A stretch of 64,000 nucleotides of DNA. Origin: Escherichia phage vB_EcoM_LNA4. A program made the translations under genes and the position numbers. Positions 32,627-46,076 of this stretch are shown piece after piece (position 1 is the first letter of the stretch; each line of letters starts with the position of its first letter). The stretch lies in sequence record MZ311864.1; one strand, written 5' to 3'. Under the pieces are notes generated by a model. That model was not told the origin of the DNA. It was given only the letters and a program-made list of their open reading frames with translations, and did no database searches.

Positions 32627-33020
32627 CATCTTTCCCGTCCACAGCATTCTCACGGAAAAGAACCAAGGAGCACTCAAGGTCACCGTAGGCAACACTTGTC
32701 AACAGTAGCAACTTCTCTCCCTCAACAAGCTCACAGTCATTAAGAAGCAGGACTGTAAAGGCCTTATCTGGGTCAATGAAATCGTCTGTGAAGACAACAT
32801 AGTCTCCGTGATCGGTTTCCAGCATTCTCCAAATACCTGTTCCGACCATGAACTTAGGTTTCAGAGAAGAAACAGCGAGGGCCTTAGAGTCCCTCATTAC
32901 TGCTTCCATGATCATCCCGTCAATCATAAAACCCCCACACGGCGAAGCTCTGTACTCAAGGTGGTGTGATCGTTGGCAGTACGCTTCATATAGACCATCT
33001 GGAAGATGATTGAAGCCCAC
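32622..33020 (-). CDS. hypothetical protein
   Basis: 132-aa ORF. Confidence 0.35.
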   Translation of the reverse strand: MGFNHLPDGLYEAYCQRSHHLEYRASPCGGFMIDGMIMEAVMRDSKALAVSSLKPKFMVGTGIWRMLETDHGDYVVFTDDFIDPDKAFTVLLLNDCELVEGEKLLLLTSVAYGDLECSLVLFRENAVDGKDE

Positions 33021-34057
33021 TGACCAGCACTCATTTTACGATGAGTCCCGTCCCACGAGGTAAACTCCACCCCGTTAGGGAACCAGGTTTTGTACTGGTC
33101 AACAATCGCAGTCCACATATCCTTTTCAGTCTGAAGGTGACCGATCAGGTTGAATGCAGCAGTATCCCCAAAACGCCCGGAGATATCGAATGACTGATAA
33201 GGTTTGATGTTGTCTGAGCTATCACCGCAGAGCATCTGGTAGCCAAAGAACTTACGTCCCCAGCCCTTGACCTTGTTACCTTCCATCCAAATCTCTCCCA
33301 TAGAATCATCAATGATCATTGGGATAGGGTGTTTCCATGTTTTCTCTTCGCTGTCACGCATAGTGTCAAAAAGAAGACCCGGCGTTCCCTTCTGGTCCTT
33401 ATCGAAGGATGCAACCATGTAGTTGAACTTGCCAGTGGCCTGGTAGAACTCCCACCCGGTGTTCATTAGCACAGACAGGTAATCGTCTGCCTCAACGCCG
33501 TCAATCACCTTGGCCTTGTACTTCTTCTTAACATATTCGCGTGTTTCCTGCAACAGCTTAGGACGCAGGGTGTCTTCACGGTTGCCCTTATAACGCTCAG
33601 GTGCCGGAAGTAACAGACGGAAGTTGTTTTCACCACCAAGAACACCCATCCCGTATTGGTTGTCCATTTCAAGGTGTTCAAAGATCGCATTGATCTTAGT
33701 TTTCAGGATGTGCAGGCAGTTTTCAACAGGCTCTGGAGTCTGAATGTCCTCAATCAGGAAGTCATCTCTTCCCCACGGAGTAAATTCACGTCCTTCTGCC
33801 TTTGCCTTGATTTCCATATTGGCGTTCTGGTCTTTCAACCAACCGCCTACCACCCTTTTGGTGGAACCCCAGAATTCTGTTCTGTTTTTGAAGATCTTTT
33901 CCCTGCCAGAAGCAATGTGCGTTGCCTTAATCGTGCGCTTCTCAGCGCCAGCAGCAGACACAAAGCAAGTTTGGTCAAGGTCTAAAGCGATCACACAGTC
34001 ATTCGTGACTTTATTTTTCCAATCTTTATCATACGGATATCCCACTAGCCCTCTCAA
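32924..34057 (-). CDS. 5'-3' exonuclease / flap endonuclease (FEN, RNase H-like)
   Basis: DGVEADDYLSVL matches the FEN G-x-E-A-D-D motif; 377 aa. Confidence 0.6.
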   Translation of the reverse strand: MRGLVGYPYDKDWKNKVTNDCVIALDLDQTCFVSAAGAEKRTIKATHIASGREKIFKNRTEFWGSTKRVVGGWLKDQNANMEIKAKAEGREFTPWGRDDFLIEDIQTPEPVENCLHILKTKINAIFEHLEMDNQYGMGVLGGENNFRLLLPAPERYKGNREDTLRPKLLQETREYVKKKYKAKVIDGVEADDYLSVLMNTGWEFYQATGKFNYMVASFDKDQKGTPGLLFDTMRDSEEKTWKHPIPMIIDDSMGEIWMEGNKVKGWGRKFFGYQMLCGDSSDNIKPYQSFDISGRFGDTAAFNLIGHLQTEKDMWTAIVDQYKTWFPNGVEFTSWDGTHRKMSAGQWASIIFQMVYMKRTANDHTTLSTELRRVGVL

Positions 34058-34545
34058 TCGTTACTCAAATACTCGTCCAAATACCGGACATCCAGTTCCC
34101 ATTCCTCTCGCTTACTCCGTTCATGATACAAGGCAAATGCCTCGCTAACGTACTTCTCTGCGACCTGTCTGGAGACACCGTTCACCTTCATGAAGTGACG
34201 AAGGGCGATCTCTCCTCTTCCACGAATACCAGCAAGGCCGATATGTTTTACTTCGTGACATGACGGGCAGAGCGCGATAAGACCTTTCAGCGTTATCTTA
34301 CCATTACCAAAGTCCCAGATTTCGTGACACTCAACAGGGTGCTTATTCCCTTTACCACCACAAATCTCACATCTGTAATTGGCTTTGGCATAGCATTTCT
34401 TTCTTACGACATCCCATTGGGATTTAGTGAGGTGAGAGCGTAAGTTAGTAAACCAAGCTGTTTTCGGAACCAGTTCAATCTCTAATTTCAATTCACCTCC
34501 ACGAAGCTGCGATAACGACATCAATTGCTCTTTCCCAGCATTCAC
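34054..34545 (-). CDS. HNH homing endonuclease
   Basis: CEICGGKGNKHPVECHEIWDF...CPSCHEVKH. Confidence 0.6.
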   Translation of the reverse strand: MNAGKEQLMSLSQLRGGELKLEIELVPKTAWFTNLRSHLTKSQWDVVRKKCYAKANYRCEICGGKGNKHPVECHEIWDFGNGKITLKGLIALCPSCHEVKHIGLAGIRGRGEIALRHFMKVNGVSRQVAEKYVSEAFALYHERSKREEWELDVRYLDEYLSND

Positions 34546-35005
34546 CGAGAAGATTTAATCCTTGCCAGTTGGCAGGATCATCAATGCGTGTATCATATTC
34601 ATTCATTTTAACTCCCCAGATTGCGTCATATGGGGATGCCTCTACAAAGCGACGACCAGCATCTCTGTGGGTCAGTGCTGCCTCAAGGATGGATCGATTC
34701 GCCTTCATTTTCAGAACAAGACCGTTTGTTACAATGTCCATCCGGTTTTCTTCCCAGACACTATTGTCAAAGTCCCTGACTTTACGGCCCAGCGCTTTTG
34801 CCTCATTTGGATTATTAACCGTGGCAATACGTGCAGCAATCTCTTTATCATCAAAGAGCATTGCTTTCTGGAACATCATAAAGTGCTCAACCGTGAAGAA
34901 TTCATAGCCACCACAACGGATAGGGATTACCTGACGGAAGTGGTTGCTGAACATATCACGGTAAGTGAAGAAGAAAACATGCTTATCAGTTATTCTCATC
35001 ACCAA
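34493..35005 (-). CDS. NADAR (YbiA-like) domain protein
   Basis: FSNHF, TVEHFMMFQKAMLF, NPNEAKALGRKV and EASPYDAIWGV match NADAR/DUF1768 signatures. Confidence 0.7.
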   Translation of the reverse strand: MVMRITDKHVFFFTYRDMFSNHFRQVIPIRCGGYEFFTVEHFMMFQKAMLFDDKEIAARIATVNNPNEAKALGRKVRDFDNSVWEENRMDIVTNGLVLKMKANRSILEAALTHRDAGRRFVEASPYDAIWGVKMNEYDTRIDDPANWQGLNLLGECWERAIDVVIAASWR

Positions 35006-35010
35006 ACCTC

Positions 35011-35205
35011 TTAGTGGAATGTCTTTTTAGACGGACATGAACCAGCACCTTCTTTCACAACGCTCTCGGTACGATTACCGTCGCTGTAGATGCAGACTTT
35101 GGAGCTTCCATCAGTGTATTCATCCACCAAAGAAAGTGTGTTGACTGTGGCGAATGCCTGGGAAGAGAGCAGCGCTGCTGCTAAAAGAATTGTTGTGCGG
35201 ATCAT
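35011..35205 (-). CDS. small secreted protein
   Basis: Signal peptide MIRTTILLAAALLSSQAFA; 64 aa. Confidence 0.45.
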   Translation of the reverse strand: MIRTTILLAAALLSSQAFATVNTLSLVDEYTDGSSKVCIYSDGNRTESVVKEGAGSCPSKKTFH

Positions 35206-35268
35206 TTTGTATCTCCTTTATTAAGTTGAGACCCGATAATAATCTATCACCGGGCCTTTTGTCAACTC

Positions 35269-36159
35269 TTATTTACCTGCTGGCAGGGTAACGAATGGGG
35301 TCTGAGAGCCGCTGGTCATGTAGACTGGGGTCACACCGTTCCACTTGTTAATTGCTTCCAGTTGCATAATCTCTGGGTTTTTGCGGAGAGAATCACCACG
35401 AAGTTGGATGGATTCTGCTTCACCTTTTGCCAGCGCTACTTTAGCATCGGCTTCACCCTGAGCTTGCAGTCGCTTAGATTCAGCTTCACCGCGAGCGGCT
35501 TCGATCTGTTTCTGAGCTTCAGCTTTGGTCTGCTGGATTTCGTTTTCACGCAGCAGTGCTTTCTGAGTCGCTTCGATCTTCGCGTTGATGGACGCTGTTA
35601 CCTGTGGTGGGTAACGCAGGTCATCAGTGTAAGACAGTTTCACGATCACGATACCAATTGGGTCAAGTTTCGCTTTCAGCGTTTTCGTCACACGATCCAG
35701 AAGCTGAGATTTACCATCACCAGCCAGCGTACCGATATCCATCGTACCCGCTTCTTTGATCAGTGCATCAGAGATGTTCTGACGAATGTTTACATCAGTG
35801 ATTTCCTGAACACCTTTACGGTAAGTCTGGAAGATCTTGGTGACCTTAGAGCGGTCAACGTAGTATTCAACACCAACCTTCGCAGAGACTGTCATGGAGT
35901 CTTTGGTCTGGAAGTTAAACGGCTGGTCGTAGTTGTTCAACTGATTGAACGTTGGGAACTGATAGATCTCTTCGTTCCATGTCAGCCAATATTTACCAAC
36001 ACCGACTTCCTGTTGCTGAACGCCCTTCTCATCGCCGTACAGGTCAACCTTGACACCAACGTAACCTGCCGGGACGGTTGCACGTTCACAACCTGTCAGG
36101 CCAATTGCACCCAGAGCGATCAGGCCAGCGAAAACTACACGTTTGATATTCTTAAGCAT
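35269..36159 (-). CDS. SPFH/band-7 domain lipoprotein
   Basis: Lipobox LTGC after signal peptide; SPFH-like core and C-terminal coiled coil. Confidence 0.6.
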   Translation of the reverse strand: MLKNIKRVVFAGLIALGAIGLTGCERATVPAGYVGVKVDLYGDEKGVQQQEVGVGKYWLTWNEEIYQFPTFNQLNNYDQPFNFQTKDSMTVSAKVGVEYYVDRSKVTKIFQTYRKGVQEITDVNIRQNISDALIKEAGTMDIGTLAGDGKSQLLDRVTKTLKAKLDPIGIVIVKLSYTDDLRYPPQVTASINAKIEATQKALLRENEIQQTKAEAQKQIEAARGEAESKRLQAQGEADAKVALAKGEAESIQLRGDSLRKNPEIMQLEAINKWNGVTPVYMTSGSQTPFVTLPAGK

Positions 36160-36299
36160 TGGTTTGGTTCTCCTCTTTGATTTTGTATTCAGTTTTTACA
36201 GTTTGGTCAACGTGATCGTCAACAATTTTCGCTACCAAGGCAGCGGCAGACTTATTTCTGGACCGGGCCAGATGCTGCAACTTTTCCCAGGTAGATGCT

Positions 36300-36503
36300 T
36301 TAAGATTTAGTAGCATCTAAGCCTCCACGTTTAAAGAACACTTTACGGACCCAATACCACACAACCGCCGGGGCTGAGAACACCAGGGCGAAACCGCCGA
36401 TAACGCCCAGTGTATCTTTAGCAGAAACTAAAGTTGGTACTGCGAACCCGAAGATGAAGCAAAGGAAAACAAATAAGCCAACACCATTCAGGTAATATTT
36501 CAT
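36300..36503 (-). CDS. small membrane protein
   Basis: 67 aa, two hydrophobic helices. Confidence 0.35.
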   Translation of the reverse strand: MKYYLNGVGLFVFLCFIFGFAVPTLVSAKDTLGVIGGFALVFSAPAVVWYWVRKVFFKRGGLDATKS

Positions 36504-36838
36504 TATTGAGCACCTTCCGCAGCGGCTGGTTTGCCACGACCAAACAGAATATCTGCTTCGGTCATCTGCTCAACCTGCTCCTCAAGGTTTTTACGCTTTT
36601 TACCAGCCTGATACTGACGGTCAAACTCTGCTGCTACCAGCGTTTTGATGAATTTAGGATCGTAGTTGTGGCTGTCCTTTTCTACCGCAACGATGTCCTT
36701 GAACTGGCTCGCCGCATCTTTCTGGGCGATCTTCGCATCAACACCTTCCTGAATTACTTTCTTCAGGCGATCACGCTCTACTGGGTCAGAAGGCAGGGTG
36801 TTTTTCAGTTCTACTTTGATTTTAGGCATACGTGGCAT
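36503..36838 (-). CDS. hypothetical protein
   Basis: 111-aa charged ORF. Confidence 0.4.
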   Translation of the reverse strand: MPRMPKIKVELKNTLPSDPVERDRLKKVIQEGVDAKIAQKDAASQFKDIVAVEKDSHNYDPKFIKTLVAAEFDRQYQAGKKRKNLEEQVEQMTEADILFGRGKPAAAEGAQ

Positions 36839-36906
36839 AGTTTTGTTTCTCCTCTGTTTGTTTAGTCTGTTCAGTATAACTACTTAATTCTTTTTGTCAA
36901 ACACTT

Positions 36907-37152
36907 TTAATCAATGCCGACAATCTTTCCACCAGAACGCTCAATCTGAGCAATATACGCATCCAGTGTTCCGAGTGTACACTCATAGGCGTACTTCTTC
37001 TCACCACCCCAACGACGCTTCATTGTGAAGCGAATCACGTATTTTCTACGCGGCAATGGAGACACCGAGCTTTGGTCAATGCTGATTTTAACATTCAAAC
37101 GCTTTGCCAGTTCACGGAGGTCACTAAAGACCTTTTCAACATCTTCGTTCAC
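36907..37152 (-). CDS. hypothetical protein
   Basis: 81-aa ORF. Confidence 0.35.
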   Translation of the reverse strand: MNEDVEKVFSDLRELAKRLNVKISIDQSSVSPLPRRKYVIRFTMKRRWGGEKKYAYECTLGTLDAYIAQIERSGGKIVGID

Positions 37153-44358: not shown

Positions 44359-44676
44359 ATGGGGTACATCGCGTCAGGTAAGCACATCTACGGTAACTTC
44401 GAACTGAAGTTGCTGTCGGTGACCTGCGCCTCGTCCAACGACAAGATTGTGTACCTCTACATGCGTCATCAGTATCACTACTTCAAGTCTCTCCGGAAAA
44501 CGTACCATGAGTCGCTTGACAGTATTGCTGATGCCACAGGATTATCGAGGGCAACTGTTGCCAGGTGTGTGAGCAACCTTGAAAAGATAAAGTGGTTGAC
44601 AAAGGACACAACACGCACCAATATGGGCCACAACAAAACGATTTACGAAATTCACAATTGGACAGAGGAGAAATAA
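44359..44676 (+). CDS. helix-turn-helix DNA-binding protein
   Basis: SIADATGLSRATVARCVSNLE HTH segment; GGAGGA RBS. Confidence 0.5.
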   Translation: MGYIASGKHIYGNFELKLLSVTCASSNDKIVYLYMRHQYHYFKSLRKTYHESLDSIADATGLSRATVARCVSNLEKIKWLTKDTTRTNMGHNKTIYEIHNWTEEK

Positions 44677-44677
44677 A

Positions 44678-45490
44678 ATGAGTATTGAATTACGTTTGAA
44701 CAAACTGGTTGTTCCTGTAGACCACTTCACCTTTAAGGGTGGTGAGGAACAGGTCAAAATTGACCTAAAACACGCACCAAAAGGCGGTATTGGTTTCGTA
44801 GATATCACTGCCAAAATCAAAAATTCAACTGATGTCATGGCACTGGCTATGTTGGTGGATGCGTGTTCCCGTTTGGAAGGATTGCATAACCACGCAGAGT
44901 TCACCCTGCACCTTCCATACATCCCGTATGCACGTCAAGACCGTGTAATGAACCCAGGTGAAGCGTTATCTATTAAGGTTTTCGCAAACATTGTCAACTC
45001 GCTTGGTTTCGACACGGTTATCGTTGATGACCCGCACAGCGATGTCTCTGCTGCACTGCTCAATAACGTCCGTATCCGTGGTCAGGATGTTCTTATTTCC
45101 GAGATGAAAGATCTTGGCAACTCCACATTGCATAGCAACTCTTTGGTTGTGGTAGCACCTGATGCGGGTGCTCGCAAGAAAGCCCATAAGGTTGCTGACC
45201 GATTCAGTCTTCCTCTTGTTGAGGCTGGTAAAGTACGTGATTTGCAGACCAACGAAATCACTGGTACTGCGGTGTTCGGAGATGTTGAAGGTAAAGTGTG
45301 TATGATTGTTGATGATATCTGCGACGGTGGTCGTACATTCATCGCCCTTGCACAGGCCCTGAAAGAAAACGGTGCGAAACGTGTTATCCTGTACGTTACT
45401 CACGGTATCTTTTCTTTCGGTAAACAGGTCATCCTCGATGGTGGGGTTGATGAAATCTATGCGTATCATGACTGGACGGAGAATTTTTAA
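44678..45490 (+). CDS. prs: ribose-phosphate pyrophosphokinase-family protein (Prs-like)
   Basis: YARQDR, DDPHSD and PRPP-binding loop VDDICDGGRT motifs; 270 aa. Confidence 0.75.
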   Translation: MSIELRLNKLVVPVDHFTFKGGEEQVKIDLKHAPKGGIGFVDITAKIKNSTDVMALAMLVDACSRLEGLHNHAEFTLHLPYIPYARQDRVMNPGEALSIKVFANIVNSLGFDTVIVDDPHSDVSAALLNNVRIRGQDVLISEMKDLGNSTLHSNSLVVVAPDAGARKKAHKVADRFSLPLVEAGKVRDLQTNEITGTAVFGDVEGKVCMIVDDICDGGRTFIALAQALKENGAKRVILYVTHGIFSFGKQVILDGGVDEIYAYHDWTENF

Positions 45491-46023
45491 TGACTGAATC
45501 AACAAGTTTTATTTTTGTTGTCGATACAGATTCCTATGCTGGTAATTTTGAGCGTGACATGTGCGCTCATATCACCGGGCAGATTGGTGAATGCGGTGTT
45601 GGTGCAGAGTACCGCCCCGATATTGAAGACCTAAAAGAAGACCATTACGATTTTGATCTCGAAAAAATCTGTGAGTGGTTAGAAAATAATGTTCTCCAGG
45701 TTCCAGATGAACACGCCTGCTATCGCCCATGTGCGATTTACCCAACACCGGGGCGTACAAACAACGGCGGTGGTGTGCATTCTGATGTGACCGCAAATAA
45801 TCCATTCAAGTGGCCTGCATACGAAAGTGTAGCTATCTACATCCGTGAAGAACCACCTGAAGATGTGGTACGTTTCATGGTCATCCGTGCTAACACTTTC
45901 TATATTCGTGCGACCAAGTGGTCACCAGCAAAAGAAATCAAGGTAAAAGGTTGCAGATTGGTTAAAGAAACGACAACTGTGAAAACAGAATCGAAATCTT
46001 TAGACTTTTCACTTGACATCTAA
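45490..46023 (+). CDS. hypothetical protein within NAD operon
   Basis: 177-aa ORF with ATGA overlap to Prs-like gene; Cys/His-containing, no recognisable motif. Confidence 0.5.
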   Translation: MTESTSFIFVVDTDSYAGNFERDMCAHITGQIGECGVGAEYRPDIEDLKEDHYDFDLEKICEWLENNVLQVPDEHACYRPCAIYPTPGRTNNGGGVHSDVTANNPFKWPAYESVAIYIREEPPEDVVRFMVIRANTFYIRATKWSPAKEIKVKGCRLVKETTTVKTESKSLDFSLDI

Positions 46024-46076
46024 ACCAAACGGGGTGTAGAATCACCCCATCAAAACACACAAAGGAGAAACAAAAC

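Follow-up and report, generated by a model that had tools for sequence, protein, structure and literature searches.

A stand-alone NADAR-domain protein is encoded on the minus strand, at positions 34493–34999, of a 64,000-nucleotide stretch of DNA from Escherichia phage vB_EcoM_LNA4 (record MZ311864.1), which is referred to here as the window. The protein retains all the catalytic and ADP-ribose-binding residues of the family, and its most probable role (probability about 0.65) is that of an AdfN-like glycohydrolase, which would undo the ADP-ribosylation of guanines in phage DNA by host toxins of the DarT1 type. We infer its substrate and its role in infection from a tested homologue with 40% identity and from family-wide data obtained in vitro. 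The gene is real, intact and ordinary, and it belongs to an already explained kind: both the NADAR identity and the class of function were known from the annotation of the related Cronobacter phage GAP31 and from publications of 2023–2025.

The gene and its family

The open reading frame (ORF) runs from 34493 to 35005 on the minus strand and encodes 170 amino acids (aa) if translation starts at the TTG codon at 35005. An in-frame ATG at 34999 gives a product of 168 aa and is the more probable start, because AAGAGG lies 7 nucleotides (nt) upstream of it and because the homologues of GAP31, 4MG and other phages are annotated at 507 nt. The AAGAGG element (35012–35007) overlaps the TAA stop codon (35011–35013) of the upstream gene, which encodes a 64-aa protein. 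No support was found for the plus-strand ORFs that overlap the gene. An earlier interpretation made from the letters of the window alone (the sequence-only reading) had given the coordinates without a strand.

34493..34999, minus strand: NADAR-domain protein coding sequence, 168 aa, predicted nucleic-acid ADP-ribosylglycohydrolase, AdfN-like
35007..35012, minus strand: Shine-Dalgarno-like AAGAGG, read from the sequence, 7 nt upstream of ATG 34999

The same reading had placed the product in the NADAR/YbiA-like family by four motifs, namely FSNHF, TVEHF..QKAMLF, NPNEAKALGRKV and EASPYDAIWGV. All four occur in the minus-strand ORF, and the assignment is borne out by profile, sequence and structure matches. 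The profile search against NADAR/DUF1768 that had been proposed as a check gives a match to PF08719 (NADAR) with 119.3 bits (cutoff 35.1, E=2.6e-34) over profile positions 13–155 of 163. This is the sole Pfam match of the protein, which thus consists of a single NADAR domain. The NCBIfam model TIGR02464, named "riboflavin intermediates N-glycosidase", is matched with 121.7 bits (cutoff 73.7), and phrog_1017 with E=2.7e-51; the NADAR profile matches are far beyond chance. With 37 bits, the protein falls short of the cutoff of 240 set for NCBIfam NF053876 ("NADAR family anti-phage protein"), and membership of that family was rejected. PDC-M42C, a PADLOC model for a candidate component of defence systems, is matched with E=8.7e-28; this is a generic NADAR match that is uninformative on function in a phage. 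Since phage NADARs match this model, NADAR domains are present on both sides of the conflict between phage and host.

The phage belongs to the genus Seunavirus of the Vequintavirinae. Positions 33000–37000 of the window share 94–95% nucleotide identity with Enterobacter phage EC152 and GAP31, and 82–91% with 4MG, PVP-SE1 and many Salmonella, Cronobacter and Klebsiella phages. The NADAR proteins of GAP31 (GAP31_157) and EC152 are each 99.4% identical to the window protein; the former is named "NADAR family protein" in RefSeq, as is the 4MG homologue. In other records the homologues are labelled "hypothetical", "N-glycosidase YbiA" or "GTP cyclohydrolase II", the last of these in PP681140 (EC152), MT939253 (Seu621), OR352953 (AV123) and others. 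Because the window protein is a NADAR domain alone, the label "GTP cyclohydrolase II" is a mis-transfer from plant RibA-NADAR fusions. Phage homologues of the protein are found in 720 records, which include K-like Staphylococcus phages, Listeria, Enterococcus and Bacillus myoviruses, and jumbo phages.

Fold and active site

The window protein has the YbiA-like alpha-helical core fold. In structure comparison, its best match is the NADAR of Phytophthora nicotianae (PnNADAR) in complex with ADP-ribose (8BAU; score 21.3, root-mean-square deviation 1.9 A over 160 residues), which is its top PDB match by both sequence and structure. E. coli YbiA (2B3W) follows with 16.3 and the DarG1-type NADAR of Geobacter (8BAT) with 7.6, whereas the next match, which is unrelated, scores 5.2. 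The Foldseek result agrees with this ranking.

In PnNADAR, ADP-ribose is contacted by E43, K50, K75, R79, W89, R93, E125, D130 and W133 (PMC11543638). According to the HMMER alignments, once a two-residue shift in chain numbering is taken into account, the equivalents in the window protein are E38, K45, K68, R72, W82, R86, E120, D125 and W128. In an alignment of 112 homologues, E38, K45, W82, E120 and D125 are invariant, and K68, R72 and W128 are retained in at least 94% of the sequences. The residue at position 120 discriminates between the families: it is Glu in general NADARs and YbiA, Asp in DarG1 and His in the T4 type (PMC11543638; PMC11825919; PMC12945103). By its sequence, the window protein, with E120, is a member of the Glu-type general NADAR family and not of the DarG1 or the T4 gp30.3 type. 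Fold, family and an intact active site are therefore established.

Comparison with characterised NADARs

Three phage NADARs have been connected with the DarTG1 defence system. AdfN-T4 (T4 gp30.3) strips ADP-ribose from DarT1-modified DNA and shields T-even phages from DarTG1 (PMC11825919, Johannesman et al. 2025). The same work describes two further, unrelated NADARs of phages, AdfN-Bas32 and AdfN-Bas60. Both neutralise DarT1 in cells that are not infected, and both restore the plaquing of RB69, T5 and Bas25 on hosts that carry DarTG1, not on those that carry DarTG2 (PMC11825919). AdfN-Bas60 is the product of bas60_0111 of Escherichia phage PaulScherrer (Bas60), and the window protein is its homologue and probably its functional analogue as a counter-defence factor. 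The two proteins are 40% identical over their full length (E=4e-36) and share an identical N-terminus, MRITDK.VFFF. Both are orphan single-domain NADARs of large virulent enterobacterial myoviruses, both carry Glu at the position of E120 together with the other catalytic residues, and both match PF08719, TIGR02464 and PDC-M42C. They differ in that AdfN-Bas60 has an insertion of about 15 residues, Tyr in place of W128 and Trp in place of His20, and lies in another genomic neighbourhood; moreover, AdfN-Bas60 has been validated by experiment, whereas the function of the window protein is predicted. In a neighbour-joining tree built without bootstrap, the Seunavirus and Bas60 groups fall within a single large assemblage of stand-alone NADARs from phages and bacteria, with PnNADAR basal and E. 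coli YbiA as the outgroup.

The other characterised proteins are more distant. PnNADAR is eukaryotic and 29% identical; the window protein lacks its short extension at the N-terminus and an insertion within the chain. DarG1 (Geobacter lovleyi 8BAT, E. coli C7) is of the same superfamily and is expected to share the predicted reaction, the removal of ADP-ribose from the N2 of guanine in DNA. The window gene has, however, none of the marks of a darG1: its product lacks the basic N-terminal extension and the Asp, and no darT1 lies beside it. The sequence of the DarG1 structure was not matched by the window protein, even with a profile. AdfN-T4 is likewise a phage-encoded enzyme of the NADAR fold that counters DarTG1, but it belongs to PF08010 instead of PF08719, has His at the catalytic position equivalent to E120, and needs the T-even context for full activity; neither the family nor the His is found in the window protein. 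Similarity to gp30.3 was rejected, as BLASTP gave no alignment between the two. E. coli YbiA is 27% identical to the window protein (E=2e-8), has Ala at the position of K68 and sits in a LexA-controlled host operon; in vivo, it failed to rescue cells from DarT1 (PMC11125620).

Reversal of DNA ADP-ribosylation as the favoured function

The sequence-only reading had proposed two roles, the reversal of host ADP-ribosylation of the DarT type and the processing of NAD metabolites in connection with an NAD+ operon. The reversal of guanine ADP-ribosylation is the role best supported by homology and by the literature, while the operon link does not hold (see below).

The proposed mechanism would begin with a host DarT1-type ADP-ribosyltransferase, which would use NAD+ to put ADP-ribose on the N2 amino group of guanines in phage DNA. 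The modification would block replication. The phage NADAR would bind the ADP-ribose, with K45, K68 and R72 directed to the pyrophosphate, E38, E120 and D125 to the distal ribose, and W82, R86 and W128 providing further contacts. Hydrolysis of the N-glycosidic bond between ribose and guanine would then yield free ADP-ribose and unmodified DNA, and replication would resume. Because the target of the enzyme is the product and not the toxin, it should counter any guanine-directed ADP-ribosyltransferase. On the analogy of other Glu-type NADARs, it may also act on ADP-ribosylated guanine in RNA and on ADP-ribosylated cytosine.

This function is supported by the homology to AdfN-Bas60, by the retention of all the catalytic and ADP-ribose-binding residues, and by the orphan context of the gene, whose neighbours encode two nucleases (the HNH endonuclease and the exonuclease) as well as small proteins. 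The position of the gene within a block of DNA replication and repair genes, behind a conserved sigma-70-like promoter candidate, is also consistent with it, as is its accessory-gene behaviour, with a conserved locus whose alleles diverge far more than the flanks (see below). In addition, all NADAR families tested take ADP-ribose off guanine in both DNA and RNA in vitro (PMC11125620; PMC11833690; PMC12945103).

Several points weigh on the other side. E. coli YbiA and T4 gp30.3 cleave ADP-ribosylated guanine in vitro and nevertheless fail in the rescue of cells from DarT1 (PMC11125620), and an identity of 40% to AdfN-Bas60 is no guarantee of the same specificity in vivo. The window protein passes the TIGR02464 model, whose name points to riboflavin intermediates. 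At the proposed base-stacking position, which is Trp or Phe in most relatives, the proteins of its clade carry His20. The Bas60 locus is not syntenic with that of the window gene, and in the sequences L002 and L008 neither the HNH nor the exonuclease gene lies close to the NADAR gene; orthology by position therefore cannot be claimed. The favoured function presupposes DarT1-type toxins in the hosts concerned (Enterobacter, Cronobacter, Klebsiella or Salmonella), and the role of the Seunavirus alleles against DarT1 is a prediction from homology and the literature.

His20, allele divergence and possible other nucleic-acid targets

The same chemistry could be directed to another target. The protein might remove ADP-ribose from guanine or cytosine in RNA or DNA modified by pierisin/ScARP-like or still unknown host enzymes, or it might bind ADP-ribose on a defence protein, as would be the case, according to a citation in PMC11825919, for a phage NADAR-like inhibitor of Retron-Eco1 that works without catalysis. 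We regard this as unlikely, even though several observations are compatible with it. Glu-type and YbiA-type NADARs, and not those of the DarG1 and T4 types, remove ADP-ribose from cytosine in DNA and RNA (PMC12945103), and the window protein has E120; NADARs also act on ADP-ribosylated guanine in RNA (PMC11833690). Given these activities, a broader or shifted substrate range is conceivable.

A second observation concerns the S-N-W motif. Position 20 is His in the window protein and in each of the 18 homologues closest to it (at least 47% identity), and this residue is specific to the clade; the remaining homologues carry Trp (71 sequences) or Phe (22). In SCO5665 of Streptomyces, docking suggests a stacking interaction between Trp71, in the motif S69-N70-W71, and the guanine or cytosine that bears the modification (PMC12945103). 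His20 would correspond to this Trp71, as judged from motif spacing and not from structural superposition.

The third observation is the divergence of the gene within the genus, where at least three strongly diverged NADAR alleles occupy the same locus. The presence of a NADAR gene at this locus is kept in Seunavirus despite the divergence of the alleles. Compared with GAP31, 4MG and KE22, the ratio of nonsynonymous to synonymous substitution rates (dN/dS) is 0.025–0.06, which indicates purifying selection. Amino acid identity to PVP-SE1 is 59.5% for NADAR and 93–96% for the exonuclease, HNH and SPFH proteins; the corresponding figures for KE22 are 77% and 92–97%. Against PVP-SE1, dN is 0.33 for NADAR, 0.03–0.05 for the same three neighbours and 0.11 for the 64-aa gene, and dS is saturated for NADAR and 0.7–1.1 for the flanking genes including the 64-aa gene. 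Against KE22, dS is 3.0 for NADAR and 0.7–1.7 for the flanking genes. Since both dS and dN are raised, replacement by older, diverged alleles is indicated and not a mere relaxation of constraint. The NADAR locus is a hot spot of divergence within the genus, which suggests allele replacement at a fixed position. This pattern is the usual behaviour of accessory and counter-defence genes, and at least three diverged alleles at one locus would fit an adaptation to different host toxins.

The invariant His20, the Glu-type active site and the deeply diverged, swapped alleles could be taken one step further. The Seunavirus clade might be a specificity variant, in which each allele is tuned to a different, possibly unknown, host defence that ADP-ribosylates nucleic acids. 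This extension is doubtful. The hosts that it would concern are Enterobacter, Cronobacter, Klebsiella and Salmonella.

Against a different target stands AdfN-Bas60, the sole tested member of the same phage NADAR group, which neutralises DarT1 without other phage factors. The invariance of the catalytic residues argues for an enzyme and not for a mere binder of ADP-ribose. Finally, no defence system that makes ADP-ribosylated cytosine is known (PMC12945103).

Less probable roles: riboflavin intermediates and the NAD+ economy

The removal of ADP-ribose from guanine in DNA has also to be weighed against a housekeeping role of the YbiA/COG3236 type, in which the protein would act as an N-glycosidase that hydrolyses reactive intermediates of the riboflavin pathway, or similar damaged ribosyl metabolites, during infection. 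The TIGR02464 score, the YbiA-type Glu at position 120 and the labels "GTP cyclohydrolase II" or "N-glycosidase YbiA" in several GenBank records could be read in this sense. The validated anti-DarT1 protein AdfN-Bas60 also passes TIGR02464 (109.4 bits), so that the name of the model has no functional weight here; the match was rejected as evidence of a riboflavin role because it does not separate the functions. The cyclohydrolase label is inherited from the plant fusions, whereas the window protein is single-domain. Moreover, E. coli YbiA is a distant outgroup, its context rhlE-ybiA-dinG-ybiB is absent at the window locus, the window protein is not fused to RibA or RibD, and the annotation of 44 kb surrounding the GAP31 homologue contains no riboflavin genes. 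A housekeeping function is thus very unlikely.

It is most improbable that the protein belongs to an NAD+ economy of the phage, processing NAD-derived small molecules (free ADP-ribose derivatives or ADP-ribose-based immune signals) together with Prs and NAMPT: these two enzymes are encoded by the same phage and belong to strategies of NAD+ reconstitution that counter NAD-depleting defences (PMC13464706), and PnNADAR binds free ADP-ribose (PMC11543638), but the operon link of the sequence-only reading finds no positional support, as about 10 kb and some 25 genes separate the two gene groups, which are on opposite strands, the published NARP pathways include no NADAR (PMC13464706), and NADAR homologues occur in hundreds of phages, many of them of Staphylococcus, Listeria and Enterococcus.

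44678-47762, plus strand: Prs, unknown 177-aa and NAMPT genes, a divergently oriented block about 10 kb from NADAR

Directly upstream of Prs, at 44359-44676 on the plus strand, lies a gene for a 105-aa winged-helix protein with weak matches to PF24409 ("wHTH-PRTase associated") and to HTH families. It is called "replication initiation protein" in PHROGs and RefSeq, and may instead regulate the Prs/NAMPT cluster.

Organisation of the locus

The NADAR gene is one of a long run of minus-strand genes for replication, repair and nucleotide metabolism. The local order is a transcriptional regulator, small membrane proteins, an SPFH/band-7 lipoprotein, the 64-aa protein, NADAR, the HNH endonuclease and the exonuclease. 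Domain, PHROG and PADLOC scans of the neighbours revealed no adjacent ADP-ribosyltransferase or DarT/DUF4433 gene, and for this reason the NADAR gene is an orphan in the sense used for AdfN.

34054..34491, minus strand: HNH endonuclease gene, 145 aa from TTG 34491, downstream of NADAR (phrog_5200, E=4.5e-75)
35011..35205, minus strand: 64-aa gene with a signal-peptide-like N-terminus (phrog_4641), directly upstream of NADAR
35236..35265, minus strand: sigma-70-like promoter candidate, TTGACA-18 nt-TATTAT, 11/12, a pattern match from a consensus scan
35269-36159, minus strand: SPFH/band-7 (HflK/C-like) lipoprotein gene, upstream of the 64-aa gene

The HNH gene starts 1 nt after the NADAR stop codon, and its GGAGG lies within the last NADAR codons. 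Given this spacing and the GGAGG inside the 3' end of NADAR, the two genes are probably translationally coupled. In a mechanically made list of ORFs, the HNH gene begins at GTG 34545, with a 53-nt overlap with NADAR; the annotated TTG 34491 is better supported. The boundaries of the two genes are the same in GAP31, 4MG and PVP-SE1. The order NADAR-HNH-exonuclease is retained in LTH01, a more remote phage of the Vequintavirinae, with identities of 48%, 59% and 67%, respectively, and is absent in Bas60 and AV123. Upstream, the genes for the SPFH lipoprotein and the 64-aa protein (35011-36159) are both conserved across Seunavirus. The product of bas60_0109 was considered as a homologue of the SPFH protein and rejected on comparison.

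The promoter candidate follows the SPFH lipoprotein gene and precedes the 64-aa gene; as a sequence pattern, it could drive the 64-aa, NADAR, HNH and exonuclease genes. Across five Seunavirus phages its -35 hexamer is invariant. The -10 hexamer is TATTAT in the window and TATCAT in GAP31 and 4MG, and KE22 and PVP-SE1 have a variant hexamer, with TATCAT one base downstream. The spacer of the candidate contains a partial inverted repeat (CCCGGTGAT...ATTATCGGG), which might be an operator or the terminator of the SPFH gene.

Significance

Conceptually, the window gene adds nothing beyond the published work on AdfN. What is new here is modest, namely the divergence of the NADAR alleles relative to their flanks within one genus and the clade-specific His20. 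If the favoured function is correct, the gene would be one more ready-made anti-DarTG1 determinant. It would then be relevant to host range and to the selection of phages for therapy, because this group of phages is used in the biocontrol of Salmonella, Cronobacter and Klebsiella. The hypervariability of the alleles together with His20 offers a natural panel for mapping the substrate and the in vivo specificity of NADARs, a question left open by the papers of 2024–2026.
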